IMG/VR virus record: IMGVR_UViG_3300014039_000016
Span: 8,829-72,828 of that record
From: a virus
Reading direction: 5' to 3' (one strand)
Length of the DNA: 64,000 bases
This document shows, piece by piece, positions 1 to 60,536 of the stretch (its first letter is position 1; each line of letters starts with the position of its first letter). Made by a program: the position numbers and the translations under genes. Below the pieces are notes generated by a model. It did no database searches. It was not told the origin of the DNA and worked only from the letters and a program-made list of their open reading frames with translations.

Positions 1-200
1 TCTAACTACAGTTAGTTTGAATTAACAAGGGTTAGCTTAATCTAACTAGGGTTATAAAATCCTAACTACAGTTAGTTTGAATTAACAACTGTTAGAAATT
101 GCTAACTTTACTTTTATAAAACGAACTTTGATTCGTCTTCTCTAACTTTAATTTTATACAGCTAACTACAGATAACTACAACTAATTAAAATTAGAGAAC
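1..200. repeat. Cluster of CTAACT/AGTTAG hexamers, including 27-bp direct repeats at 2-28 and 62-88 (ctaactacagttagtttgaattaacaa) and palindromic CTAACT-N2-3-AGTTAG units
   Basis: Direct reading. There are at least 12 copies of CTAACT or its complement in 200 bp. A third copy of the 27-mer lies at about 1594-1621. Confidence 0.8.
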
Positions 201-226
201 GCAAATCAAATTTTGGAGGATTGCCG

Positions 227-508
227 CTACTTGGCAACCCAAACCTTTAACAATATGTCGTCATATTTAGACGACTGGTCATTTACATCAAATAACATTT
301 TGACGCTTTGACCCTCGGCTATCTGGCAACCATCAAACTCCCAGATATCACCTGCCTTATCAGCAATCCGCACAAATCCGTTGTCGTTGCTGATAACCCT
401 GCCCTCTCTTGTGCAGTGACCCTCAAGGTATACCGCACCTAAGAATAATATACTTATACTTAATCCCAGGGCTATTTTCTTAACTATTCTCTTACTATTA
501 TTTTTCAT
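227..508 (-). CDS. Hypothetical secreted or membrane-anchored protein (N-terminal signal-peptide-like hydrophobic segment)
   Basis: ORF track 227..523. The ATG at 508 lies 8 nt downstream of a GAGGT. The annotated first codon is GTG. N-terminus KKIALGLSISILFLGAV. Confidence 0.5.
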   Translation of the reverse strand: MKNNSKRIVKKIALGLSISILFLGAVYLEGHCTREGRVISNDNGFVRIADKAGDIWEFDGCQIAEGQSVKMLFDVNDQSSKYDDILLKVWVAK

Positions 509-569
509 AATTTTAAACCTCACTTTTCATTTTTATTTTATGCGGGCTTGGTTTCCCAAGCCCTAATCA

Positions 570-878
570 TTAACAATATATCAAGGACATGTCTGCCCAC
601 TTGAGAATAGATATCTGTGCGCACTGTCTGCCAAGTGCCAAAGCGTCTCTTTTTGTAGACACTCTGTGGCTCTTGTCTACAAAGTAGACACCATTCTCAA
701 GCCAAAGTCCGCAATTACCGCCGTATGCCCTAACGGCTTTGATTGCTTCCTCGGGAGTTGTAACCATTACTCCCTCGGTGGCTACTTGATAACCACTCTT
801 GTATGTGATTATCTTACCATTCTTGAGTGTTAAACCGCCACACTCTTCAATCTTTCTTATTGTCCTAACATTAATCAT
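570..878 (-). CDS. Hypothetical protein
   Basis: ORF with a GAGGT RBS 9 nt upstream. No recognisable motif. Confidence 0.5.
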   Translation of the reverse strand: MINVRTIRKIEECGGLTLKNGKIITYKSGYQVATEGVMVTTPEEAIKAVRAYGGNCGLWLENGVYFVDKSHRVSTKRDALALGRQCAQISILKWADMSLIYC

Positions 879-918
879 ACTTATAATACCTCGCTTTCTT
901 TCTTGGGGAAGTCCCGGC

Positions 919-1185
919 TTAATAGCCGAGACTTATTAACTTACTGATATAAGTGTTTAAGACAGCCACCAACTGCTTATTTGAAAGATTTTTAAATCTT
1001 TCGGCAGTGAAGTCGATAGGTGGAAGTTCCACACCTTCGACCTTGATGATGTAAACGCTTGGACAAGCCTTGATAGCGTTTACAAGGTGGAAGATATTAA
1101 TATCTTCATATGCGTATGTCTTATCTGTATATTCCTCAAATCTGATTGAGAAGAGTTCTTTTGTAAATGCACTTAATTTTTTCAT
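919..1185 (-). CDS. Hypothetical protein
   Basis: ORF with a GAGGT RBS 7 nt upstream. Confidence 0.5.
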   Translation of the reverse strand: MKKLSAFTKELFSIRFEEYTDKTYAYEDINIFHLVNAIKACPSVYIIKVEGVELPPIDFTAERFKNLSNKQLVAVLNTYISKLISLGY

Positions 1186-1289
1186 GGTTAATACCTCACT
1201 TTATTTTTATTTTACGGCTTCGCTCACCGTACCTATATACTATCATACCCAGTTTTTGATGTCAATACCTTTTTGAAAAATTTTTGAAA

Positions 1290-1450
1290 TTTTTTTCATG
1301 CCCTACTTTCAAGGCTTCCAACGCACCTAAACACACGCAGCAGATGATGATGTGACTACATTTTTAGTCAACAATAGTGACGATGTGTCTACTTTTGTAG
1401 TCAGATAGTCACCAATTATGGGATAAGACTAGGCTTGTAGTCACACGCAA
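1290..1450. repeat. Iteron-like cluster of TGTAGTCAC / GTGACTACA motifs in both orientations
   Basis: Copies of gtgactaca, tgtagtcagatagtcacc and cttgtagtcacacgc lie within about 100 bp of non-coding DNA. Confidence 0.6.
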
Positions 1451-1530
1451 TGCGAGTTTGAAAAGTTTAATTAAGTAGTCAGATAGGCAAAATGCGGTGC
1501 GCTTTATGGGAGGAAGCGCGCCGTTCAAAA
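1400..1530. repeat. Copy A of a ~130-bp duplicated non-coding element, with a TAGTCACnnATTATGGGA box and a TTTGAAAnGTTTAA...AAAATGCGGnGCGCTTTATGGGAGnAAGCGC box containing a GCGCTT/AAGCGC palindrome
   Basis: Aligns with 2555-2685. The ends are conserved and the middle has diverged. Confidence 0.7.
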
Positions 1531-1660
1531 TAACTAACCAAAGTTAGTCAAGCCTAACAATAGTTAGACTAAACTAATTAGATTTCGGGAAGACTAACTT
1601 GAGTTAGTTTGAATTAACAAGTATTAAGCTTGGCTAACTCAAGTTAGTTTCCCAAAACCA
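1530..1660. repeat. Second CTAAC/GTTAG motif cluster, including a third copy of gttagtttgaattaacaa
   Basis: actaaccaaagttagtcaagcctaacaatagttagact...ctaacttgagttagtttgaattaacaag...ctaactcaagttag. Confidence 0.75.
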
Positions 1661-1845
1661 GATGAGTGCGGATTAGCGGTTTCCGCACTCATCTAATAAA
1701 CTAGACAAGAAGCCAATGATAAACTCCATAAGACTAAGAAGTTCATCATCAGATATGACTATGTGTGTAAGCACAAAGTCAATCTGACTATTGGCTTCTG
1801 TGACAGTGGAGCATTGCTCCACCATCACTATAGCTTCTATAAAAT

Positions 1846-2325
1846 TCATTCTATCACCTCCCCTGTTTTCTCATTTACCAAGTCACATCTAAGACCTAGT
1901 ATTCTGCAGGCTTTAGCTGTGTTATAGAACACTGCCTGTGCCTTGGCAAAACTCTCAATCCCTGTAAAGATTGGAGTATCACCATTATAAACTCCATAGG
2001 TTATTCCCTGGAGTTCAAACTCCGCTATTGCGGAGTTCACACAATCTGTTATTACTTCAAGAAGCTCTCCCTCGAAATACTCCTGAAGCTGATTCACTTC
2101 CTCAAGGCAGTTGAGATACATATCCCACTCACCCCAAGCTTCTGCCAGCTCATCATAGATTGCGCCAGTCACAAGGACTGTACAATCACTCCTAGTGCTT
2201 CTGTTGTAGATACCCTTAATAACTATAAGGGCATTCTTAGCCTTTGTATCAACGGCAACCCAGTTGCCTATTTCTAATTTCATGCCCATAAGTGACTGGG
2301 CATTTGTCTTGAATCCTTTTATCAT
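1846..2325 (-). CDS. Hypothetical protein. The start was reassigned to the internal MIKGF ATG
   Basis: The longer ORF 1846..2475 runs through the repeat/promoter region. The ATG at 2325 follows GAGG (gaggtaaatATG). Confidence 0.5.
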   Translation of the reverse strand: MIKGFKTNAQSLMGMKLEIGNWVAVDTKAKNALIVIKGIYNRSTRSDCTVLVTGAIYDELAEAWGEWDMYLNCLEEVNQLQEYFEGELLEVITDCVNSAIAEFELQGITYGVYNGDTPIFTGIESFAKAQAVFYNTAKACRILGLRCDLVNEKTGEVIE

Positions 2326-2554
2326 ATTTACCTCTTTCTGCCTCTTCTCTTGAGGCTGTTTATTTTTATTTTGCCGCCATTGCCTTGCGACACTATTATA
2401 GTACACCCATTGCACACCCATTGCAATATGCAAAATGCACAAAGTTTGACAGATGTTTTTGTGCAAATTGTACAAAGTTTGAACGCACTAGTTGAGAGCA
2501 CCGAACATTTGTTCACCGCTTTGGTTAGCTCCGAGAATAGTTTAGTTTTTTAGT

Positions 2555-2685
2555 CACATGATTATGGGAAGTTTTATTTGACTACTTGATTAGACTTTTG
2601 GAATTTGAAATGTTTAAATAACTAGAAATATAGTAAAATGCGGAGCGCTTTATGGGAGTAAGCGCACCGGCGATTTGAAATTGTA
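2555..2685. repeat. Copy B of the ~130-bp duplicated element (TAGTCACatgATTATGGGA ... AAAATGCGGaGCGCTTTATGGGAGtAAGCGC)
   Basis: Direct alignment with 1400-1530. A fifth TTATGGGA lies at about 2806-2814. Confidence 0.7.
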
Positions 2686-2903
2686 CGGGACTGTACTCTT
2701 GATGTATGCCATTTATTTTTTGATAAAGCTACAGACCGTACACAAGAGGTAGTCATCAGTTTAAAATAAAAAAAATTTTTCTTGTTTGTTTACTTTTACC
2801 CGGGGATATATTATGGGAAAATGAAAAATTAATTCTATAAAATCATATTTAGCTGGTACATTCACACACCCCAAATTTTTTGAAATTTAAAATACGAAAA
2901 GAT

Positions 2904-3209
2904 TTAATTCCGTACAACTCTTCCGTGCTTCCCTGTTTGCTTATATGCCATAAATAAATTATTTAATTTAATATTATTTCCATCTCCTAAATTAATTAAT
3001 AGGAAATCACAATTTTTTATAATATCTGCGGTTTCTGCATTTTTTATGTATCGGGTCGGTGCACCAACCGATTCAGCCCACTTTGCGGCAATACTATCCT
3101 TATTTGTTACTAACATATAAAATAAATAGCATTGACTTTCCGCAATTAATTTCTGCATTTCCGCATCAATATCTTCAATTTTATTAAAACCAATTGCCGC
3201 GACTACCAT
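2904..3209 (-). CDS. Hypothetical protein, possibly a small Rossmann-like fold
   Basis: ORF with an AAGGAG RBS. N-terminus MVVAAIGFNK. Confidence 0.45.
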   Translation of the reverse strand: MVVAAIGFNKIEDIDAEMQKLIAESQCYLFYMLVTNKDSIAAKWAESVGAPTRYIKNAETADIIKNCDFLLINLGDGNNIKLNNLFMAYKQTGKHGRVVRN

Positions 3210-3275
3210 TTTACCACTCCTTTATAATAATTATATCAAAAAATTTTTTTCTTTTCAAATTATCTACTTTTGTCC

Positions 3276-3304
3276 TTGACTTATGAAAATTTTTTTGGTA
3301 TAAT
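3276..3304 (+). promoter_or_regulatory. Sigma-A-type promoter: TTGACT, a 17-nt spacer ending in TGG, then TATAAT
   Basis: tccTTGACTtatgaaaatttttttgGTATAATtatt sits about 30 nt upstream of the RBS of the 3335 gene. Both hexamers are near-consensus with an extended -10 TG. Confidence 0.75.
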
Positions 3305-3334
3305 TATTATAAGAATAAGAATAAGGAGAGACTA

Positions 3335-4417
3335 ATGGAGCAACAAAAAGAAAATAGTGATTATATTAAAATGGATTTTAATATTGAATCACCTGCGGAA
3401 AGAGTAGAAAAAGTAAAAGAAATTATTGCCAACACTCCTCCTGAAAGATTAACTCATTCTTACTTAGAAAAATTAAGTAACTACATAATTTTTGCTATGG
3501 ATAAAGAAGAAAGAAAACAAAATAAAATCTTAACAGATAACCATATGCAAACAGTAAATGTAAGAGAGACATCTTTTGAAGGACTTGTAGGCAGATTAGA
3601 AAATGGCGAAGATGGTATATATAATATGATTGCGAATGACAAAAATATCATATTTAAGCCAAAATTTGAAATCACAGACGCGGATGTCGCGGAAATGCCT
3701 GAGTTAAGGGAACTCCGCAAGGGTATAGAAGAATTAAAGGAACAGTTAAAAGCAGCAAGAGGCAAAAAGGCATATCAAATAAAAAAACATATCATAGAAG
3801 CAAGTCAAGACCAGTATGTAATAAAAAATTCTTATAAAAAACCTATCTATTGTATAAATCCCCTTAAAAGTGTAGCAAAATTAGATTTAGATGAACATGT
3901 AACTATTGATGAAAATGATGAAATTCATACTGATGGTATTTTAAGTTTACTCGTGCCGCAACATATTTGCGCGGTATTGTGTAATTATGAAAAATTAAGA
4001 ATTCAAACTTGGGATAAATTAAATAGTGATGTTAAATGGTTTCTTGTAGATTTAGACAATCTTATAGATGAGACCTTAAAATATGATTATCCGATATATT
4101 ATGATATAACTCTCTTAAAGATTCGCGGCTATCAAAATACAGATATTCAAGAGTATTTAGAAAAAGAATATAATGTAAATCATTCTGTTGAATATATTTC
4201 TTCTCTTTGGAGAAACAAAATACCCAAACTACTTGCGGAAAAGGCTCAAGAAAAGTGGTTAGTTTGGTATTATACTAATAAAGCAGAAGGAAAATGGAAA
4301 AAATGTTCAAGGTGTGGGCAAATTAAGTTAGCTAGTAATAGATTCTTTTCAAAAAATAATACAAGCAAAGATGGTTTCTATAGTATATGTAAATGTTGTA
4401 GAAATAAAAGAAAATAA
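3335..4417 (+). CDS. Hypothetical protein with a C-terminal CxxC...CKCC zinc ribbon. It is the first gene of the rightward operon
   Basis: ORF with an AAGGAGAG RBS. C-terminus CSRCGQIKLASNRFFSKNNTSKDGFYSICKCC. Confidence 0.55.
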   Translation: MEQQKENSDYIKMDFNIESPAERVEKVKEIIANTPPERLTHSYLEKLSNYIIFAMDKEERKQNKILTDNHMQTVNVRETSFEGLVGRLENGEDGIYNMIANDKNIIFKPKFEITDADVAEMPELRELRKGIEELKEQLKAARGKKAYQIKKHIIEASQDQYVIKNSYKKPIYCINPLKSVAKLDLDEHVTIDENDEIHTDGILSLLVPQHICAVLCNYEKLRIQTWDKLNSDVKWFLVDLDNLIDETLKYDYPIYYDITLLKIRGYQNTDIQEYLEKEYNVNHSVEYISSLWRNKIPKLLAEKAQEKWLVWYYTNKAEGKWKKCSRCGQIKLASNRFFSKNNTSKDGFYSICKCCRNKRK

Positions 4418-4435
4418 TATAAAGGAGTTGACAAA

Positions 4436-5731
4436 ATGGGCGCACAAGAAGTAGAGCCAGGGAAATATTACTGTGAAAAATGTCGTAAGACAATGGGCGC
4501 AGTACAATTTTTTACCTATAAAGATGGTAGTAAAAGCGAATTGTGTAAGCAATGCTTAACTATGCATATTAACAACTGGGAGCCAGAAACATTCAAATGG
4601 CTATTGGAAAAATTTGATGTTCCATATCTCCCTTGGGAATGGGATAAAATTAGGGATAAACAATATGCGAAAGACCCCTATAAAATGACTGGAAATAGTG
4701 TTTTTGGTCGCTATCTCGCAAAAATGAAATTAAATCAATGGAATAAATATCATTGGTCTGATACTGAGCGGCTGGTGCGGGAGGCAGATGAACTTGCGAA
4801 TAGAGCGGCAGCGGCAAAAGAAGAAGATGAAAAACTTGAAAATATGCGAAAGCTCGCAGATGAAGGTGCAATTAGTGAATCTCAATATCAAACATACGCG
4901 GAAACGCAGATTGAGAAACCTATACCTAAGCCAGAGAGCTTACCCAACCCATATGAGAATGGGCAAGCCAATCCTGCATATCGAGCTGCCGCGCGAGCAT
5001 CTGTTTACCCTGTAAATAATAATCCATTTGAAGAGATTGATTTACCAGATGTCGGAAATGATTTAACGCAAGAGGATAAAATTTACTTAGCTACAAAATG
5101 GGGCAGATTTTATTCTGCGGAAGAGTGGGTAACTTTAGAAAAGAAATACAATGATTTCACAAATTCATTTGACATACATTCCGCGGCAACTATAGATACT
5201 TTAATTTTTATTTGTAAAACTTCATTAAAAATGAATCAGGCTCTTGATAGCGGAGATATTGAGTCTTATCAAAAATTATCAAGGGTTTATGATGCGCAGA
5301 TGAAAGCTGCGAAGTTCACAGAAGCGCAGAATAAAGAAGATAAAAGTAATGACTTTGATGCTATTGGTTGCATCGTTGAGTTCTGTGAAAAAGAAGGCGG
5401 CTTCATTCCAAGATTCTATACAGAGACTCCGCAAGATAAGGTTGATGTTGTTATTGCGGATGAAAAATCTTATGTTAAGTCTCTTGTTGATGGTGACTCT
5501 GGATTAGCACAACAGATAGAACAATATCTTAAGAAGCGTGAAATCCTTGAAGAACAAAAGAGAAATAAGGAAAAAGCAAAATTAGAAGGTAAAGAGCAGA
5601 TTGAATTAACAGATAAAGATATTCAAGAATATATAGAGCATCAGCAAAAAGAAAAAGAAAAAGATATTATCGCGGAAGATGATGATAATGAAGATAGTTT
5701 TGGAAGTCTTTTTAGCGTGGAGGTTGAATAA
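4436..5731 (+). CDS. Hypothetical protein with an N-terminal zinc ribbon, a coiled-coil and an acidic tail. It may be a small-terminase-like or DNA-binding packaging protein
   Basis: N-terminus CEKCRKTMGAVQFFTYKDGSKSELCKQC. It sits immediately upstream of terL. The function was not identified. Confidence 0.4.
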   Translation: MGAQEVEPGKYYCEKCRKTMGAVQFFTYKDGSKSELCKQCLTMHINNWEPETFKWLLEKFDVPYLPWEWDKIRDKQYAKDPYKMTGNSVFGRYLAKMKLNQWNKYHWSDTERLVREADELANRAAAAKEEDEKLENMRKLADEGAISESQYQTYAETQIEKPIPKPESLPNPYENGQANPAYRAAARASVYPVNNNPFEEIDLPDVGNDLTQEDKIYLATKWGRFYSAEEWVTLEKKYNDFTNSFDIHSAATIDTLIFICKTSLKMNQALDSGDIESYQKLSRVYDAQMKAAKFTEAQNKEDKSNDFDAIGCIVEFCEKEGGFIPRFYTETPQDKVDVVIADEKSYVKSLVDGDSGLAQQIEQYLKKREILEEQKRNKEKAKLEGKEQIELTDKDIQEYIEHQQKEKEKDIIAEDDDNEDSFGSLFSVEVE

Positions 5732-6354
5732 TGAGTTTACAAAGTATACTAGACCTTTCTGCGGAAAGAGATAATAAAAAAGTAGGCTGTTCAGAAGAAA
5801 GATTAAGAGAATGCCTTCCTGAATTGCGGAAGGCTATTGCTTTTTATCGTGAATATCCAGATATCTTTGTTGATGATATTAAAGGACCGGATTGTAACTT
5901 TCAATTTTATTTTTATCAGAGAGTTTTCTTAAGGTCGGTTATGCGACATCGTCGAGTTTATGCAGTATTTCCTCGTGCCTATAGTAAATCATTTCTAACT
6001 ATGATGGCTTTAATGCTGCGTGCGATTCTTTATCCAGGTGCAGCGTTATTTGTAACTACGGGCGGAAAAGAGCAAGCTGCAAGTATCACAATCGCGAAGA
6101 TTGAAGAAATTTGTCGACTTATTCCCGCGCTGAATAAAGAAATTAATTGGGATAGAGGAGCTTCAAAAAAATCAAAAGATAATGTAAAATACATCTTTAA
6201 GAATGGCTCTACTATTGATATTCTTGCGGCAAGGGAATCATCCAGAGGTCAGCGTCGTACTGGCGGAGCTATGGAAGAATGTGTACTTATTGATGGAACC
6301 GCCTTGAACGAAATAATTATTCCTAGACTTATAAGGTTGTGGGACCTAATTTAG
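5731..6354 (+). CDS. terL: Terminase large subunit, N-terminal ATPase part (exon 1). It carries a deviant Walker A, PRAYSKS
   Basis: The motif YAVFPRAYSKSF, the downstream ECVLID segment and synteny with the nuclease half and the portal. The ORF tail after VLID is probably intron read-through. Confidence 0.6.
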   Translation: MSLQSILDLSAERDNKKVGCSEERLRECLPELRKAIAFYREYPDIFVDDIKGPDCNFQFYFYQRVFLRSVMRHRRVYAVFPRAYSKSFLTMMALMLRAILYPGAALFVTTGGKEQAASITIAKIEEICRLIPALNKEINWDRGASKKSKDNVKYIFKNGSTIDILAARESSRGQRRTGGAMEECVLIDGTALNEIIIPRLIRLWDLI

Positions 6355-7399
6355 TAATAAATTAGTGCATGAACGGTGTGAACCCATTGGTTATGGGGTG
6401 TAGTATAAAGATATACTGCTAACGGTTAGGCTATAAATAAAGTGAGACCGTGCTAAGTTTATATTTTGTTATAAAAAAGTGTAGAGACTATCCAGAGGAG
6501 AAATACGCCTGGTTAGGGCTGAGAATAACCACAGCTCGAAGCGCACCGCAACTTTTTAAAATTTTTGGTCAAAAATATACAATAAAATTGTTCATTTTTT
6601 AATTTTATTGAGGGTATGTATATCCCGGGATAAAACTGAGTTATAGAAAGGAATTAAGAAAATGATTCAATGGAAAAAAAATTTTTATAGATGAAAAAGA
6701 GACTAATTACAGTGTTTCTAGCACTGGAGAGGTCAGAAATGATATAACTAAAAAAATATTATCACAAAGAATTCAACAAGGGTATAAACATGTAACTTTA
6801 TCATTACCAAATAAAATAAAATCATGTCGAGTTCACAGGCTTGTAGCACAAGCCTTTATTGAGAATCCTGAAAACAAACCCTATGTGAATCATATTGATT
6901 GTGATAGAAGTAATAATAATGTTGAAAATTTAGAATGGGTAACACCAAAAGAGAATTCTCAAAAAGCGGTTCTAGAAGGTAAATTTTTAAATAGTTCCCA
7001 TTTAAGACCTGTTGTTCAGTATAGTTTAGCAGGAAAAAAGATTAGAACTTTTGAAAGTGCCATTGAGGCAGCAAGACAGTTAAATTTACAACAATCTAAA
7101 ATAACAGAATGTTGTAGAAGAAATAGAAAAAGAACCGGAGAATATCAATGGAGATATGCAGATGAAGAATGTCTTCAATTAGAACCTATTCAAAAACAAA
7201 ATCGCCCTGGAGTGAAAGTTGCAAGATGCAACGATGATTTAGTTATATTAGAAATTTATAATTCCTATAAAGAAGCAGCAAATGCAATAAAAGGTAGTTA
7301 TCAAGCTATTGCTGCAATATGTAATGGAACAACTATAAATATTCATCATAAAGGCTGGAGATGGAAAAAAGTTGATGATATAGTCCAATCAAACAATGA
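6355..7399 (+). mobile_element. Intervening sequence splitting terL. I interpret it as a putative group I intron carrying an HNH homing endonuclease ORF
   Basis: About 300 nt of structured non-coding sequence (aaagatatactgc and agagactatcc resemble group I S/R elements; tatcccgggata is palindromic) precedes the HNH ORF. The downstream terL frame opens exactly at 7400 with no RBS or ATG. Confidence 0.5.
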
Positions 7400-7403
7400 T
7401 TGA
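6662..7403 (+). CDS. HNH homing endonuclease of the HNH_3 type. The ATG at 6662 with its RBS is in a different frame from the HNH core, and the two frames are separated by an A8 run at 6674-6681
   Basis: VNHIDCDRSNNNVENLEWVTPKEN HNH motif. The upstream in-frame peptide ...YSVSSTGEVRND matches the conserved N-terminus of this family. The track ORF 6885..7403 is the in-frame core. Confidence 0.8.
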
Positions 7404-8551
7404 CAACGAATGTTGATAGACGACTTGCAGACGGAAGTAGAGACCCTAAAGAAACAGTAAATAAAAGTCAGGTATATATTACAACCGCGGGATGGAAGAA
7501 TTCATTTGCATATGAACATCTGATTGAGATGTTAATTGATTCAATTCTAGACCCAGGTGAAGTAATGATACTAGGTGGAACATATGAAGTTCCAGTTGAA
7601 GCGGGCTTATTAAGTGAAGACTTTGTAGACCAGCTAAAATTGCAAGGTACATTCAATGATGCCTCCTTTGACCGAGAATATAGGAGTATTTGGTCAGGAG
7701 ACGCGGAAAATGCTTTCTTCTCCAATGAATTATTTGATAAATATCGTCAATTACTTCAACCAGAATATGAATTCAGTTCAAGAAGTTCAAAAAATGCATA
7801 CTATATACTTTCAGTCGATGTAGGTCGTTTTGGTTGTACAACTGAAGTTATGGTTATAAAAGTAACGCCGCAAGTGCAGGGAACAGCATTGAAGACTCTT
7901 GTTAATATTTATAGCTATGATGAAGAGCATTTTGGAGTTCAAGCTATAAATATAAAAAAACTTTATTACAAATATCGTGCGAGAACCGTGGTTATAGATG
8001 CCAATGGTCTAGGTGCTGGACTTGTGGACTTTATGATAATAGGTCAAGAAGACCCGAAAACAGGAGAATATTATCCACCTTTTGGAGTAGAAGGCGGAAC
8101 TTTCGATGATTGGTATGACCAGTATAAGAAATTTAAAACAGATGATATGGTTAGAGATGCGATGTATTTAATTAAGGCTAATGCGCCAATTAACACTGAA
8201 GCTCATAGTTATTGTCAAACTCAAATATCTAGTGGGAAAATTAAATTTTTAATTGATGAAAGAGATGCAAAAATAAAATTAATGTCCACAAAAGTTGGTC
8301 AAGAAATGACTCCAGAACAACGTGCGGAAAGGTTGATACCATTCACCTTAACCACGATACTGAAGGAACAAATGCTGAATCTGGTGGAAGAGAACGAGGG
8401 TGTAAATATTATTCTTAAGCAAGCTAATAGAGGAATTAAGAAAGATAAATTCTCTGCTTTCGAGTATGGATTATACTATATAAAGCAGCAAGAAGATAGG
8501 AAAAAAGATAGACATAGTAGAGATGTTTCAAAAATGATGTTTTTCAGTTAA
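7400..8551 (+). CDS. terL: Terminase large subunit, C-terminal part (exon 2) with an RNase-H-like nuclease domain
   Basis: YITTAGW and the acidic motifs ILSVDVGRFG and VVIDANGLGAGL. The frame opens at 7400 with only a TTG codon and no SD. Confidence 0.6.
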   Translation: MTTNVDRRLADGSRDPKETVNKSQVYITTAGWKNSFAYEHLIEMLIDSILDPGEVMILGGTYEVPVEAGLLSEDFVDQLKLQGTFNDASFDREYRSIWSGDAENAFFSNELFDKYRQLLQPEYEFSSRSSKNAYYILSVDVGRFGCTTEVMVIKVTPQVQGTALKTLVNIYSYDEEHFGVQAINIKKLYYKYRARTVVIDANGLGAGLVDFMIIGQEDPKTGEYYPPFGVEGGTFDDWYDQYKKFKTDDMVRDAMYLIKANAPINTEAHSYCQTQISSGKIKFLIDERDAKIKLMSTKVGQEMTPEQRAERLIPFTLTTILKEQMLNLVEENEGVNIILKQANRGIKKDKFSAFEYGLYYIKQQEDRKKDRHSRDVSKMMFFS

Positions 8552-8629: not shown

Positions 8630-9001
8630 GTGGAGGTGAGTAATTTGAGAAGTTCTCGTGGAGAAATAAAAATTGAAGAAATTTTAACAATGGCAAACTT
8701 ACCTTTTCAAGAGGAGTATAGTTTTCCAGACTTAGTAAGTTCGAGTGGAAGACCATTGCGTTTTGACTTCTGTGTATTCGATGACAATGGAGATATAGAT
8801 TTCTTAATCGAGTATCAAGGCATCCAACACTACGAGGCCAAGTCGAAATTTGGAGGTACTAAAGGATTGTATCGCCAGCAATATAATGATAAGATGAAAA
8901 GAATTTATTGCCAGCAACATAATTATACTTTAGTTATTATTCCTTATTGGGAAGAAGGACTAGTAGATTACGATTATTTATTAAAAGCCGCAGGTTATTG
9001 A
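8630..9001 (+). CDS. Vsr/DUF559-like protein with a PD-(D/E)xK endonuclease fold. It may be a free-standing nuclease
   Basis: RFDFCVFDDNGDIDFLIEYQGIQHYE resembles the DUF559 l.IE.DG.QH signature. Confidence 0.4.
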   Translation: MEVSNLRSSRGEIKIEEILTMANLPFQEEYSFPDLVSSSGRPLRFDFCVFDDNGDIDFLIEYQGIQHYEAKSKFGGTKGLYRQQYNDKMKRIYCQQHNYTLVIIPYWEEGLVDYDYLLKAAGY

Positions 9002-10669: not shown

Positions 10670-12016
10670 ATGAAACGAGCTTTTAATCGTAGTGTTGCTA
10701 CTATTGATGAGCCAGAGTTTATAAATGTCACTTCAATTAATCCTCTTATCTCCCAATGTGAAGTAAAGGTTTTATATGTAGGTGAAAACCGCAATAAATC
10801 TTTAATCACAAAAGAAGTTGCTAGGAATATGGCGGAAACCCTTCCAGGCTGTCCTATTGTTGGATATTATAGAGCAGATAAAGAAGATTTTTTTGACCAT
10901 GGCGATATTCTTACTATTGATGGAGATGGGATAAAATTTAGTGATGCAACAAGACCTTACGGTTTTGTAGCTCCAAATGCGAAGATTTGGTTTCAGAAAT
11001 TTATTGATACTGATGAAAATGGAGTAGAAACGGAAAGAGAATATTTAATGACGACAGCTTATTTATGGACTGGCTCTTATCCAGAGTGTGAACAAGCTTT
11101 AGACAATGGCAATCCGCAATCTATGAAATTAGAAAAAGACAGTTTAAAAGGAAATTGGGCAAAAACGGAAAATTCTAATGTTGAATTTTTCATAATAAAT
11201 GACGCGATAATTCAAAACTTATGTATTTTAGGAAAAGATGTTGAGCCTTGTTTTGAAGGTGCAAATGTATCTGAGCCAGATATAAGTGCTAATTTTAGTA
11301 AAGAAGATAATAATATTATTACTTTATTTACTATGATGGAGCAATTAAAAGAATTATTAACTACTCAAAAAGAAGGAGGACAAAGTTCAATGAGTATGGT
11401 CGAAGAGACTAAGCTTGATGATATTTCTGTTGAAAAATTTTCAAAAGAGCAGGACAAAAATGATGAAACTGTTCAAGAGAAAAATGAAAATACAATAGAA
11501 GAGTTCAAGAAACAGGATGAAGAAGAGAAACCTTCTGATAACAAAGAAGATGAATCTAAGGATAATAAAGAAGAGAAGTCTTCTGATAATAAAGACGAAA
11601 AAGATAGTGAAGACAAAGATGAAGATAAAAAGAAAAATGAGAATTTTGAATTACTTCAATCAGAGTTTGATGCCCTTCAGGCTAAATATACTTCATTAGA
11701 GGAGTCTTATAACGAACTCGTAGCTTTCAAGAAAAGCATCGAAGATAAGCAGAAAGATGAATTAATTCAGTCTTTTTATATGCTTAGCGATGAAGATAAG
11801 AAAGATGTCATTGAAAATAAGTCTAATTATAGTTTAGATGATATTGAGAAGGAACTTTCAGTTATTTGCGTAAGAAAGAAAGTTAATTTCAATTTAGATG
11901 ATGACAAAGAAGATTCTAAAGATGTTTCAACAACATTTAATTTAGATTCTTTAGAATCTGATAGTGATTTACCAGCTTGGTTAAAAGCGGTAGAGTCTAC
12001 AGCTAAAAAGCATTAA
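10670..12016 (+). CDS. Scaffolding-like protein with a globular N-terminal domain, a long acidic Lys/Asp/Glu repeat and a C-terminal coiled-coil. It may include a prohead protease domain
   Basis: Composition, and its position between the portal and capsid genes. Confidence 0.45.
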   Translation: MKRAFNRSVATIDEPEFINVTSINPLISQCEVKVLYVGENRNKSLITKEVARNMAETLPGCPIVGYYRADKEDFFDHGDILTIDGDGIKFSDATRPYGFVAPNAKIWFQKFIDTDENGVETEREYLMTTAYLWTGSYPECEQALDNGNPQSMKLEKDSLKGNWAKTENSNVEFFIINDAIIQNLCILGKDVEPCFEGANVSEPDISANFSKEDNNIITLFTMMEQLKELLTTQKEGGQSSMSMVEETKLDDISVEKFSKEQDKNDETVQEKNENTIEEFKKQDEEEKPSDNKEDESKDNKEEKSSDNKDEKDSEDKDEDKKKNENFELLQSEFDALQAKYTSLEESYNELVAFKKSIEDKQKDELIQSFYMLSDEDKKDVIENKSNYSLDDIEKELSVICVRKKVNFNLDDDKEDSKDVSTTFNLDSLESDSDLPAWLKAVESTAKKH

Positions 12017-12038: not shown

Positions 12039-12746
12039 ATGGCATTTACTAGAATTGGTTTTGGTCAGGTTGAAGAAAACCAGATGTCTTACTACCATAC
12101 AGGTCAGATGTTTGCTAGTTTACCTCTTGATACATCAGTACAGTTACTTCAGAATGGTGAATTTATGTACTATGATTATGCAAGTGGAAAGGTAACAGCA
12201 GAACCTACAGTTGAGGGTGTGGAACCTATGTTGGTATTAAATGAAATTAAGGTTTATGAAGATTACCTTGCAAATAAAGATTTTGCTATGATGAGAGTAG
12301 GAGAGAACTATGTTACTAATCCTGCGGCAATCGGTAGAATTACTTCTGTAGTTATTGACCCTGCAACAGGTGAGGCAGCTAATCCTTACGGTGATGGTTC
12401 AAGAACTGTAAGCGCAACAATTGACCCAGCTCACACAGAGTATGGTTATAGAATGGATGGTATGGCTCCAAGAGTTGTAAAGACTAATATTGGAGACATT
12501 TATACAACAAACATGGTAGTTACAGGTGTTGATTATACAGTTGGCAATATCTTAGTTCCAACAAAGACACAGACAACAGTTAATGATTTAACTAATGGTG
12601 GAACAACACAGCAGTATACTTTAGTTCTTGCAAAGAACTCAGAAGGCGATAACACATTACCTGCTAAGGGTATGGCTTGGGCAGTAGTTAAGGTTTACAC
12701 AATGCCAGACGGACAGCCTGGATTAAAGTTACAAAGAGTACAGTAA
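12039..12746 (+). CDS. Head protein, either a decoration or minor capsid protein
   Basis: Its position before the major capsid gene, its higher GC and its strongly biased codon usage. Confidence 0.4.
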   Translation: MAFTRIGFGQVEENQMSYYHTGQMFASLPLDTSVQLLQNGEFMYYDYASGKVTAEPTVEGVEPMLVLNEIKVYEDYLANKDFAMMRVGENYVTNPAAIGRITSVVIDPATGEAANPYGDGSRTVSATIDPAHTEYGYRMDGMAPRVVKTNIGDIYTTNMVVTGVDYTVGNILVPTKTQTTVNDLTNGGTTQQYTLVLAKNSEGDNTLPAKGMAWAVVKVYTMPDGQPGLKLQRVQ

Positions 12747-58149: not shown

Positions 58150-60450
58150 TCATAATTTTTTATGATTTTCAAATTCCATTAAATCTATTTTAGAATAGTG
58201 TTTTACTCTTTGTTCTGCTTCTTGTCTTTTACCTGGGTTAAATGCAGTTTTATAATCTCCTGTTAGATATCCTGTTACTCTACGGAGTCTTTGTATCTTA
58301 TTACTTTTACAAATAGGACATTCATCTTCAGGTATATATCCGCAATAGCCGCAATCTAAACAAGTGTCATTAGGAACATTAACTGCAAAGTAAGGAATAT
58401 CATGGTCCATTGCATAACTAACTATTGCATCTAACACATAAATATGGTCTTTAATATCTTCTTCTAATTCTACATATGTTATACATCCCGCAGAAGAATA
58501 TCCAGTCAATTGACCTTCTATATCAATTTTATCAAAAGGAGATAATTTTTTCCAAACTGGTACATGAATAGAATTTGTAAAATAATCTCTATCAGAAACA
58601 TTTGGAATTACTCCATATTCTTTCTTAAATTTTTGCATTGCAGTATAACAAAGATTTTCTGCGGGTGTATAATAAACTCCAAAATTTAATTTATATTCTT
58701 CTTTAAATTCATCACATCTTGTTCTAAAAAGTTGTTCTATCTTTTTTGCTAAAGACATACCCTTTTCTGTAGTATGGTCACATCCAATAAGGATTTGTAA
58801 TGTTTCTGCTAATCCAATTTGTCCAATAGCAAGAGTTCCATGTTTTAAAGCACTTCTAATACCTTCTTCTGGAACATATCCTGCCATAACATTATTTTCA
58901 TATACGAATTTTGCAGATGCGGGATTCTGAGAACAAATCCACTCAAATCTTTCAATCAGCATATCCTTTGCTTCATAGATTTTTTTATCTAATAAAGATA
59001 TAAATTGTCTTATATTTTCTTTAATTTTTTCTTCATTATCATCATCTAATTTCTTATATACAGGTAGGTTATTTGTTCTTTCTTTTGCTATCATGGCTAA
59101 AGTTGGTAAAATAATAGTTACAGGACATATATTGCCTCTTCCATCCTTTAACTGACCGAATCCGTTAATATCCCAGCCATTGGCAGTCCTACATCCCATT
59201 GTAGAGAAATAAGTTCTAGGGTCATTGATATCATATCCAGCATTTCCGCTCCAATCAACATTTGCATAATTTGGATATAATCTCTTAGCTGTAGACTTTA
59301 AAGCTAATTGATACAAGTCATAATTTGGCTCTCCTTCTGCTCTATTAACCCCCTTCATGCATTGAAATATGCCACAAGGGAAAATTGGAGTTTTATGTAA
59401 TTTTCCTACTCCTTTTAAGCTACCTTCTAGTAAAGCTTTAATAACCATTCTACCTTCTGGAAGCGTACAAGTACCATAATTAATTGAAGTAAACGGTAAT
59501 TGATTACCTGAACGAGATTGTAATGTATTCAGATTATGATACATTCCTTCAACAGATTGTTGAATTTCTTTTTCTGTCATATCTATTGCATATTTATATG
59601 CTTTAGGAAAACTATTTTCCCAAAACTCATTATAAATACTTCTTTCACCATCAGTTTTCTTCATAGTAAAAATTTCTGAATCTGTTCCATCATTTTCGCA
59701 ATAAACAACTCCATCTCTATAATGCTTCCAAAAACTCTTTCTTACATATGGAACCATTGTCCAATCTAGGTGGGTCGCGCTGACACCTCCAAATTGCTGT
59801 AGAGACTGAAGCTGAAAAATAACAGCAAGTAATTGAAATGCTGTACTTATACTATTTGCAGGTCTAATATCTGTTTGACGAGTATTAAAACCATTTGCAA
59901 GTAAATCATCAAAAGGAATTGATAAACAATTAGGATTACCAACAGCATAACTTCCTAAATCATGAATATATATTTCATTATTTAAATGATTTTCCCTTGA
60001 TTTCTTTGACACGATTTCATTTAGTGCTATATCTTTAGTTTGAACTTCATTAGCTTCGCCCATTCGTCCACCAAAAGAATGTTCATCTACATTTGCATTT
60101 TGATTAAGTACTTCATCAGCCATTAATTTTTTAATAACTGCTTTTCTTAATTCTGTTTTTTTAGTTCTTTCTATATTTCTTTTTTCACGAAATAGTATAT
60201 AAGATTTTGCCACATCTTTTCTTTTTGTTGACATAAGACCTTTTTCAACATAATCTTGAATTTCTTCTATTGTTAAAGTTTTTTCTTCTGCAATATCACT
60301 GATATAGTCTGCGATATTACCAGCTTTTTCAATAGCATAATCATCTACATTACCATTGTCAACATCTTTAAATGCGGCAAGTACAGCATCAATAATCTTA
60401 TTTCTATCAAATTTCTGTACTCTTCCATCTCTTTTTATAATAGTTTTCAT
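58150..60450 (-). CDS. nrdD: Anaerobic ribonucleoside-triphosphate reductase (class III, NrdD)
   Basis: An N-terminal ATP-cone, the C-terminal Zn-ribbon CLDCGYCG...CPIC and the glycyl radical motif RRVTGYLTG. The GGAGG RBS selects the ATG at 60450. Confidence 0.9.
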   Translation of the reverse strand: MKTIIKRDGRVQKFDRNKIIDAVLAAFKDVDNGNVDDYAIEKAGNIADYISDIAEEKTLTIEEIQDYVEKGLMSTKRKDVAKSYILFREKRNIERTKKTELRKAVIKKLMADEVLNQNANVDEHSFGGRMGEANEVQTKDIALNEIVSKKSRENHLNNEIYIHDLGSYAVGNPNCLSIPFDDLLANGFNTRQTDIRPANSISTAFQLLAVIFQLQSLQQFGGVSATHLDWTMVPYVRKSFWKHYRDGVVYCENDGTDSEIFTMKKTDGERSIYNEFWENSFPKAYKYAIDMTEKEIQQSVEGMYHNLNTLQSRSGNQLPFTSINYGTCTLPEGRMVIKALLEGSLKGVGKLHKTPIFPCGIFQCMKGVNRAEGEPNYDLYQLALKSTAKRLYPNYANVDWSGNAGYDINDPRTYFSTMGCRTANGWDINGFGQLKDGRGNICPVTIILPTLAMIAKERTNNLPVYKKLDDDNEEKIKENIRQFISLLDKKIYEAKDMLIERFEWICSQNPASAKFVYENNVMAGYVPEEGIRSALKHGTLAIGQIGLAETLQILIGCDHTTEKGMSLAKKIEQLFRTRCDEFKEEYKLNFGVYYTPAENLCYTAMQKFKKEYGVIPNVSDRDYFTNSIHVPVWKKLSPFDKIDIEGQLTGYSSAGCITYVELEEDIKDHIYVLDAIVSYAMDHDIPYFAVNVPNDTCLDCGYCGYIPEDECPICKSNKIQRLRRVTGYLTGDYKTAFNPGKRQEAEQRVKHYSKIDLMEFENHKKL

Positions 60451-60536
60451 TAGAACCTCCATTATTTTTATATTTTTGAGTCTATAAATATATAACTTTT
60501 ATATAATAAAAGTTATATACTTTTGACCAATGGAAA

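Follow-up and report, generated by a model that had tools for sequence, protein, structure and literature searches.

Tandem arrays of a palindromic unit in a large SPbeta-like phage resemble operators of DtxR-family metal-dependent repressors

Introduction

Why would a large phage carry strictly phased rows of one short palindrome beside its early genes, and which protein might read them? The question is raised by a 64,000-nucleotide stretch of viral DNA (IMG/VR record IMGVR_UViG_3300014039_000016, positions 8,829 to 72,828), hereafter called the window, whose first 1,660 nucleotides hold two clusters of palindromes made from the pentamers CTAAC and GTTAG. A first reading of the sequence alone had proposed a multi-site protein-binding locus, such as a parS-like centromere, an origin, repressor operators or a packaging site, and had also considered a genome terminus. 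We propose, with middling confidence, that the two arrays are operators for a DtxR/MntR-family repressor of the host that senses iron, or possibly manganese, and that they might act mainly as roadblocks at the boundaries of gene cassettes and as sites that tie up this repressor. The part of this phage's own genome that was sampled comprises the window and a further 9.4 kb upstream, giving a 73.4-kb composite that represents about half of the phage genome.

Two arrays with a strict 20-bp period

Palindromes of the form CTAAC-N4-GTTAG with at most one mismatch occur nine times in the window, compared with 1.5 expected from shuffled sequences, and none of 100 shuffles reaches nine. They start at 2, 22, 42, 62 and 82 in the first cluster (array 1) and at 1534, 1554, 1594 and 1634 in the second (array 2). 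Within each cluster the starts are always a whole multiple of 20 bp apart, a period that Tandem Repeats Finder also returns. In the alternative register, GTTAG-N6-CTAAC, there are eight occurrences (1.6 expected), all confined to the same two clusters. The bare hexamer CTAACT is not enriched across the window, with 47 copies versus 41 expected and 14 of the 47 inside the clusters. Throughout the composite, which joins the window to an identical contig described below, every unit with at most one mismatch falls either at -69 to 106 or at 1534-1647 (negative numbers lie upstream of position 1). Good copies are thus restricted to two arrays, in the window as in the composite, and the motif is not spread at similar density elsewhere.

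The clusters first described as CTAACT-N2-3-AGTTAG palindromes at 1-200 and 1530-1660 are real and have the two-nucleotide centre; the N3 form has no occurrence in the window, and the well-preserved part of the first array ends at about 106. A 27-mer reported to recur at both clusters does so, being exact at 2-28 and 62-88 and carrying two mismatches in its third copy at 1594-1620. The density of the palindromes and their strict 20-bp phasing support the idea of a multi-site protein-binding locus.

Offsets between pentamers were counted over 0.49 Mb of related phage loci, chosen through a neighbouring gene for a 102-residue protein or through the motif itself. GTTAG is followed by CTAAC at an offset of 11 (N6) 261 times, CTAAC by GTTAG at an offset of 9 (N4) 174 times, and GTTAG recurs at a 20-bp period 149 times. 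Because of these counts we take the basic unit to be the 16-mer GTTAG-N6-CTAAC, in which case CTAACT-N2-AGTTAG is the junction of adjacent units. Across this genome's 16 units, information content is found only in the GTTAG and CTAAC pentamers, where TT and AA never vary; the N6 and N4 stretches are variable.

Array 1, which like array 2 is assigned no strand, occupies positions 1-106 of the window, with five 16-bp units at 11, 31, 51, 71 and 91 and the right half (2-6) of another unit that starts at -9. It is truncated by the window edge: 3.5 further units lie upstream in the identical contig, and the full array has nine good units at a 20-bp period, beginning 69 bp upstream of the window. 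Decayed units follow at 107-213 on the minus strand (CTAAC at 142 and 162, CGAAC at 122), where they overlap an inverted repeat at 124-213. Array 2 (1534-1647) has 12 half-site positions at the 20-bp unit period, the four palindromes listed above being perfect, and can equivalently be read as six or seven GTTAG-N6-CTAAC units, two of them decayed.

The exact 102-residue protein that is encoded between the arrays is also encoded on a 150,367-bp ENA contig (locus L044), which is identical to the window over their overlap and extends past position 1, with array 1 at about 74 kb and hence mid-contig; in the coordinates of that locus the array runs from 10773 to 10948. Upstream of array 1 lies a perfect sigma-70 promoter (TTGACA-17-TGGTATAAT), followed by a GC hairpin (CCGGCggggCCGG), and this promoter fires rightwards into the array. 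The same layout occurs in two relatives of about 90% identity (L002 and L003), where the locus is also mid-contig. Because the identical contig and both relatives hold the array mid-contig, the suggestion that position 1 is a genome terminus is contradicted.

The same unit beside bacterial iron-uptake genes

A two-unit query, GTTAG-N6-CTAAC-N4-GTTAG-N6-CTAAC, finds at least 120 matches in bacterial genomes, against a chance expectation of roughly one. The matches come from Oscillospiraceae, Lachnospiraceae, Christensenellales, Gastranaerophilales, Actinomycetota, Treponema, Succinivibrio, Fibrobacter and others, and the GC content of those listed ranges from 0.31 to 0.74. Nearly all listed matches consist of one isolated 36-bp two-unit site. 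The gap from a -35-like hexamer to this site, again for the matches listed, peaks at 10 bp (31 loci), 21 bp (17 loci) and 30-31 bp (17 loci), and because of these peaks the bacterial site is predicted to cover the -10 element and the transcription start.

Among the 117 loci listed, genes reading away from the site encode FeoA in 42 cases (26 + 16), FeoB in 31 and a DtxR-family regulator of about 120-140 residues in 20, and components of Fe(III) ABC transporters are found at about 30 of the 117. Pfam searches confirmed FeoA (1.4e-20) and the Fe_dep_repress and Fe_dep_repr_C domains. Judged by these neighbours, the bacterial site bears the signature of an autoregulated operator of a metal-dependent repressor. 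Its pentamers, N6 spacing and N4 junction are identical to those of the phage arrays. We consider it probable, on the strength of this match, that the protein binding the phage arrays belongs to the DtxR/MntR family. Repressor operators therefore come closest among the options first listed, in that the motif matches the putative operator of a bacterial DtxR-family regulator.

One group of bacterial loci has an unusual gene content. In Gastranaerophilales (L061, L069, L078, L099, L120, L136, L144 and L158), the 36-bp operator precedes an operon with a multi-pass membrane protein of about 350 residues that belongs to no Pfam family, and a DtxR-family regulator lies about 1070 nt downstream. This membrane protein may be an undescribed metal transporter.

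Arrays in related phages

Related loci were collected in two ways, fifteen through the gene for the 102-residue protein and 28 viral contig stretches through the pattern CTAAC-N4-GTTAG-N6-CTAAC-N4-GTTAG. This four-half-site pattern occurs in the 28 stretches in arrays of up to 48 half-sites. The phage family comes from animal-associated and other metagenomes, and the window phage is a large phage of gut type. SPbeta-like relatives have the units in pairs or in arrays that reach about 25, where one early gene cassette borders on the next, and the conserved neighbours of the arrays in these phage loci are a HAD-type nucleotidase and a nuclease-like protein, neither of them DNA-binding. A scan of all viral contigs finds that the closest relative, of 145 kb, has the two-unit pattern only in its two arrays, both within a single stretch (L001).

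Other relatives carry far more sites. In L016, a 50-bp module (GTTAG-N6-CTAAC-N6-GCCGGC-N6-GTTAG-N6-CTAAC) occupies about 16 or more successive intergenic regions within 16 kb, for a total of at least 32 units, and the modules begin about 8-12 nt past the T-run of a terminator and 23-50 bp ahead of the -35 element of a consensus promoter. In L027, arrays of 3 to about 22 units take the same position as the L016 modules, with 10 arrays and more than 50 half-sites in 14 kb. In L035, about 25 units extend across 540 bp in one array. Units of 20 bp are gained and lost between close relatives, and single half-sites decay (GTTAG to ATTAG or GTTAA).

Promoters, scored as sequences with 11-12 of 12 consensus positions, were mapped around 73 arrays and modules from 28 loci. 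An outward promoter lies within 160 bp of 40 of them (55%), at gaps of 23-78 bp that show no helical phasing; 20 have a promoter firing inward, and 26 have no promoter. In the window genome the distances from array to -35 element are 137 bp and 270 bp. The phage arrays never overlap a core promoter and their distance from it is unphased, unlike the fixed and helically phased bacterial sites, which argues against both classical repression and activation of the MntR type.

Several of these loci have further peculiarities. The GCCGGC of the L016 module lies exactly midway between its two units, and L005 and L009 have TTACAA-N4-GTTAA in place of the promoter-proximal unit. Right after its array of about 25 units, L035 has four perfect DnaA boxes (TTATCCACA) at an exact 12-bp spacing (4865-4909), which were seen in no other locus, and AAGTCAAAG repeats stand between its sub-arrays. 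L011 (5558-10275) has the gene for the 102-residue protein and no GTTAG units; it carries 12 copies of TGTAA-N-TTACA (TGTAAATTACA), often paired around a central CCGG and ending 10 bp upstream of the -35 element of a consensus promoter. Another regulator, in another host, may use this palindrome as its operator.

Search for the binding protein

No gene for a binding protein had been obvious at first sight, and our searches agree; our explanation is that the host probably supplies the binder. The proteins of 88, 102 and 98 residues that are encoded between the arrays match nothing in Pfam, PHROG or PDB-sequence searches. The 102-residue protein has 1678 metagenome homologues, none of them named, and among the matches listed nearly all are 102 residues long and 65-75% identical. 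It has 35 invariant positions, including two cysteines, and belongs to no Pfam family. Its AlphaFold model is confident (pLDDT 92), and a Foldseek search against the PDB yielded nothing better than E = 0.3 and nothing DNA-binding, and the protein was dropped as a candidate binder because its fold matches no DNA-binding fold.

Pfam and PHROG revealed no DNA-binding domain or regulator among the early open reading frames upstream of the window and at 53.7-56.4 kb. Neither the window nor any of 46 phage loci encodes a homologue of DtxR or FeoA, and the DtxR-like genes that viral contigs do carry sit in other contigs that lack the motif. A homologue of MrpR/YopR was not found at E < 1e-3 in the window and the 9.4 kb upstream. 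Partition proteins of the ParA/ParM/TubZ or ParB/ParR types are absent from the open reading frames tested (the window plus about 9 kb upstream in L002) and from the Pfam marks of L044; the open reading frames tested likewise include no replication initiator gene, and neither the window nor close relatives contain a perfect DnaA box. Because no binder was found in the sampled phage DNA, a regulator of the host is the most likely candidate.

Other kinds of site were considered and set aside. The pentamers resemble the RYYYAAC/GTTRRRY core sites of integron attC-like elements or other recombinases, but the searches turned up no recombinase, and the motif is better explained by its setting at bacterial promoters. 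LexA sites (Cheo-box-like CGAAC-N4-GTTCG), Rok sites and KorB/ParB sites all fail to fit the N6 unit. Hairpin promoters for a virion RNA polymerase, as in N4-like phages, were rejected when the 3069-residue protein of the window proved to be the tape measure.

Position of the arrays and proposed mode of action

Between the arrays lies a leftward operon of three genes (227-1185, minus strand), encoding the proteins of 88 residues (919-1185), 102 residues (570-878) and 98 residues (227-523, with a hydrophobic segment at its N-terminus). Its promoter is of the sigma-70 type (1237-1265, minus strand; TTGACA-17-TAGTAT with a TG extension), with array 2 some 270 bp farther upstream. The long, imperfect inverted repeat at 124-213 has 30-bp arms, and its minus-strand RNA would form a hairpin with UUUUAU after it (z = -4.75); the repeat probably terminates the operon. 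A perfect hairpin with a 13-bp stem (1660-1694, minus strand) resembles a terminator and overlaps the stop codon of the leftward gene at 1673-1849, and array 2 starts 13 bp past it in the direction of leftward transcription. Array 2 accordingly stands between the terminator-like hairpin of the upstream gene and the promoter of the three-gene operon, and array 1 stands between the terminator of that operon and the next leftward promoter. The sequence-only reading had placed the arrays on the flanks of the leftward early genes. Both do adjoin the operon, but each is an element of a cassette boundary and the pair is not a bracket around one operon.

We imagine one repressor dimer on each 16-bp unit, with the 4-bp gaps giving the 20-bp period, and dimers packed side by side that could bind cooperatively, about nine on array 1 and six or seven on array 2. 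Loaded with metal, the repressor would turn each array into a row of roadblocks that insulates neighbouring early transcription units. A bound row just past a terminator would block readthrough, and one placed before a strong back-firing promoter would block antisense transcription; here the perfect promoter upstream of array 1 is aimed through the array at the 227-1185 operon. The many sites might also tie up a large share of the host repressor while the phage replicates.

These two roles are compatible. A metal-dependent barrier as the primary role is plausible, at somewhat less than an even chance, because the L016 modules keep a constant distance from terminators, promoters fire inward into arrays, and the arrays are located at cassette boundaries. 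A sink as the primary role is a more tentative idea, suggested because some arrays are very large and fast-evolving; the four DnaA boxes beside the L035 array would fit with it.

Several findings weigh against the proposal of host-repressor roadblocks and tie-up. Half-sites decay between close relatives, which implies that single sites are without strong constraint, and arrays of 20-25 units exceed what a roadblock should need. This genome has only two arrays and the majority of its early promoters lack one, which means that arrays are not general to its early transcription. Some relatives that share the neighbouring genes do not have the motif or, like L011, have a different palindrome. The bacterial matches were chosen by the pentamers themselves, which leaves gene context alone as independent evidence. 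Finally, the half of the phage genome outside the sampled DNA could encode a binder of the phage's own.

Alternative explanations

The alternative that survives best retains the host repressor and gives the arrays another purpose. They might mainly act as decoys that titrate the metal-loaded DtxR-family repressor off its chromosomal operators, thereby derepressing feoAB and other iron-uptake genes and gaining iron for phage metalloenzymes such as NrdD, the anaerobic ribonucleotide reductase that this phage encodes at 58150-60462. The position of an array would then be largely irrelevant. The sites are indeed many and variable (16 units here, about 25 in the L035 array, more than 50 half-sites in L027 and at least 32 units in L016), and a bacterial locus carries one two-unit site. 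Promoter distances are unphased, unlike those in bacteria, and units are gained, lost and decaying quickly. The DnaA boxes of L035, at their 12-bp spacing, form a second cluster of sites for a host protein. Synthetic decoy repeats in yeast are reported to sequester transcription factors (PMC3322331). A sink of this kind leaves unexplained why the L016 modules keep a constant 8-12 nt from terminators and why perfect promoters fire straight into arrays, and no phage precedent was found in the literature searched. We regard it as possible though doubtful that titration is the main purpose. It is an equally tentative thought that a large SPbeta-like phage family has amplified the operators of a host iron sensor into a sponge, which would be an auxiliary metabolic function exerted by binding sites and not by a gene. 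There is a hint that the early region soaks up other host DNA-binding proteins as well, given the DnaA boxes of L035 and the dense perfect sigma-A promoters with tiny transcripts that are described below.

It is quite unlikely that the arrays tie phage early genes to host iron by metal-dependent activation or repression of the adjacent early promoters, whether through cooperative recruitment of the kind seen for MntR at mneP or through classical repression such as DtxR exerts on corynephage beta tox. Such control would be in keeping with the 55% of arrays and modules that lie upstream of a near-consensus outward promoter, and MntR does activate mneP from a four-site upstream array. However, the gap between array and -35 element varies from 23 to 78 bp without phasing and reaches 137 and 270 bp in this genome, whereas site 1 of mneP overlaps the -35 element and the bacterial operator is predicted to cover the -10. 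The phage promoters, moreover, already have 11-12 of 12 consensus positions, and activation should be superfluous.

We give a similarly low probability to the idea that the arrays are operators of a master regulator of the phage itself, comparable to the SPBRE/MrpR system, with the likeness to feoAB sites being convergent or a DtxR-like gene residing in the unsampled half of the genome. This phage is distantly SPbeta-like, and the repeated operator of SPbeta is bound by MrpR (PMC10516654). The different palindrome that L011 has in a like position is also what one would expect of regulator-operator pairs that evolve together. Against this stand the failure to find MrpR/YopR or DtxR homologues within the ranges searched, the occurrence of DtxR-like viral genes in contigs without the motif, the lack of any DNA-binding domain among the early open reading frames tested or of a DNA-binding fold match for the 102-residue model, and the identity of pentamers, N6 and N4 alike with the bacterial operator.

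A single-copy landmark, be it an iteron origin, a centromere of the parS/parC type, a packaging site or a physical end, is very improbable. Phased palindromes next to AT-rich DNA do resemble the iterons of lambdoid origins and the centromeres of plasmids, an origin could be activated by transcription into array 1, DnaA boxes adjoin the array of L035, and several short contigs end in arrays. Yet relatives have many arrays or modules at successive intergenic regions (10-16 or more per 14-16 kb) and this genome has two, no partition ATPase or initiator occurs among the open reading frames tested, and perfect DnaA boxes are missing from the window and close relatives. The replication genes that we see (DnaE and NrdD) are at least 55 kb from the arrays, GC skew tracks gene orientation, and the window edge lies inside a 150-kb contig. 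Contigs that end at arrays would be expected from assembly breaks in repeats. The centromere, origin and packaging options of the first reading fall with this explanation.

Least probable of all is an RNA element, in which transcription of array 1 from the rightward promoter would give a non-coding RNA of many hairpins, serving as a protein sponge or antisense regulator: array 1 does stand between a perfect promoter with a 5' GC hairpin on one side and a long hairpin on the other, the folding of array regions is much stronger than that of shuffled sequence (z = -10), and 20 of 73 arrays have an inward promoter, but the stems are kept by sequence and not by covariation, strong folding is automatic for repeated palindromes, most arrays lack an inward promoter, bacterial copies sit on promoters, the equivalent L011 palindrome has a 1-nt centre that permits no stable hairpin, and Rfam gives only sub-threshold chance matches to plant miRNA hairpins (E 0.08-0.8, far below gathering scores).

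Other features of the phage and its early region

A megablast search of positions 1-6000 against GenBank phages gave no match, and the kinship of this phage was established from its proteins. Pfam marks YonG_N and YonD_N, and BLASTP against SPbeta returns homologues of the terminase, tape measure, dUTPase and YorL (DnaE), the last with 37% identity over 1040 residues. By these matches the phage is classed as distantly SPbeta-like. Genes from 227 to 3209 read leftward and late genes read rightward from 3335, and GC skew merely follows this orientation. The window encodes a phage sigma factor (3335-4417), a large terminase in two parts (5731-6354 and 7400-8551, spanning 5731-8551), a portal protein, the tape measure protein, NrdD and a DnaE-type polymerase. 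An open reading frame for an HNH/NUMOD homing endonuclease (6885-7403) splits the terminase, which suggests an intron or an intein-like insertion.

Two further repeated elements are found near array 2. A second palindrome family, TGACTA-N6-TAGTCA, occurs at 1353-1370, 1386-1403 and 1426-1443, spaced 33-40 bp apart between array 2 and the operon promoter, and again at 2579-2596, with a perfect copy at -2439 (L044 coordinates), within a terminator hairpin situated 2.4 kb upstream of position 1. A further DNA-binding protein could use this palindrome as its operator. An element of roughly 70 nt is conserved in two copies (1458-1524 and 2605-2670) and is duplicated in the relative L001 too. It consists of a promoter-like TTGAAA-18-TATAGT (GATAGG in the first copy), then AAAATGCGG, then a hairpin with a 9-12-bp stem, GCGCTT-TATGGGAGG-AAGCGC, and may be a small RNA or a decayed back-firing promoter module.

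Each long early intergenic region contains a perfect or near-perfect sigma-70 promoter that opposes the genes, with nothing after it but a CCGGC-NNN-GCCGG hairpin and a terminator. Examples are found in L044 (about 10950-11017 and 12140-12210) and in L002 (10968-10996, 12489-12517, 13824-13852 and 15651-15679), with predicted transcripts of about 45 nt, and L016 has 24 perfect 12/12 promoters within 16 kb. Divergent-promoter supercoiling, tiny RNAs and capture of RNA polymerase are possibilities for their role. Early cassettes are swapped or inserted among phages that are about 90% identical (L044 11084-12365 versus L002 11064-11476; also L003 11087-12341), and the breakpoints fall inside paralogous intergenic promoter modules of 200-290 bp, which share about 70% identity and are present in several copies per genome.

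Implications

Operators of the DtxR family, cooperative MntR arrays and the control of a phage gene (tox) by a host repressor are already known. In the literature searched, we found neither the tandem operator layout with a 20-bp period for feoAB control nor phage-amplified arrays of a host metal-sensor operator. To our knowledge, links between host iron and phages have come mainly from single toxin-gene operators (DtxR-tox and Fur-stx). If our proposal is correct, widespread large phages of anaerobic Firmicutes-type hosts have copied the operator of a host metal sensor and amplified it into arrays of 7-25 sites, and phage early development would be tied directly to the iron status of the host. 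Were the arrays a sponge, a replicating phage would strip the repressor from the chromosome and switch on the host iron-uptake regulon for its own benefit.

The arrays thus offer a testable example either of a virus-borne sink for a transcription factor or of an insulator between phage cassettes that is built from a host protein. They should also provide a clue for host prediction from sequence alone, in that the host must have a regulator of this specificity. One contig with an array, L098, belongs to a metagenome-assembled genome bin of Oscillospiraceae. On the bacterial side, two tandem dimer sites at a 20-bp period appear to form an undescribed operator layout for DtxR-family control of feoAB across many bacterial phyla.

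Comparison with known systems

The literature that we searched yielded no description of a virus-borne sink for a host metal sensor. Escherichia coli has a titration locus for DnaA, called datA; like datA and the synthetic yeast decoys, the phage arrays are clusters of putative high-affinity sites that might sequester a DNA-binding protein, although those earlier examples are host or synthetic. In T4-type phages, repeated intergenic promoter-plus-terminator modules called PeSL (promoter-early stem-loop) lie on either side of small early genes, and cassettes are exchanged with breakpoints at these modules. The swaps among L044, L002 and L003, bounded by paralogous intergenic modules of 200-290 bp, are similar, but this likeness concerns the setting of the arrays and not the arrays themselves, and PeSLs lack arrays of transcription-factor sites.

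In cluster A mycobacteriophages, the stoperators (the gp71 sites of L5) are numerous repressor sites in short intergenic boundaries that block elongation. They share with the phage arrays the repetition of putative repressor sites at gene boundaries, but they are asymmetric, orientation-dependent single sites of 13 bp, to which a repressor of the phage itself binds in lysogeny. In SPbeta, the SPBRE operator is repeated at about 10 promoters and is bound by the master repressor MrpR (YopR) (PMC10516654). Like the arrays, SPBRE is a short element with dyad symmetry that is repeated in the intergenic early region of an SPbeta-type genome. However, the sequence that we recovered from SPbeta, approximately AAATACAAAwAATATGTATA, is unrelated, and it occurs as single promoter copies and not in phased arrays. 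Its binder is encoded by the phage and is recombinase-like, and no homologue of it was found in the window or the 9.4 kb upstream.

The closest parallels are with the DtxR family. DtxR controls the tox operator on corynephage beta, which is a case of a host metal repressor acting on phage DNA. Each monomer of IdeR or DtxR reads one CCTAA pentamer, one dimer uses repeats 1 and 3 (TTAG-N6-CTAA), and a single dimer is able to bind such a half operator (PMC8464063). The arrays resemble this iron box in their pentamers of the TTAGG/CCTAA type, in that GTTAG and CTAAC are the inner repeats of TTAGGTTAGSCTAACCTAA, in the one-dimer TTAG-N6-CTAA geometry, and in that the bacterial targets are iron-uptake promoters. 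They differ in that the iron box accommodates two overlapping dimers, offset by 5 bp on opposite faces of a 19-bp site, whereas here the units lie end to end at a 20-bp period, and the phage arrays hold 7-25 of them away from the core promoter.

Four Bacillus subtilis MntR dimers bind cooperatively at mneP, on four 18-bp sites that are 1 bp apart, with each dimer spanning 20 bp (PMC11882963). The resulting period is 19 bp, compared with 20 bp in the phage arrays. With the MntR arrays at mneP and mneS, and with the paired mntS sites of E. coli, the phage arrays have in common a palindromic unit for each DtxR-family dimer, by our assignment, and abutting units upstream of a sigma-A promoter. Unlike mneP, where four weak sites are fixed in place with site 1 over the -35 element and activate one host gene, the phage arrays are longer, are composed of near-consensus units, lie at variable distances from promoters and are carried by a virus.

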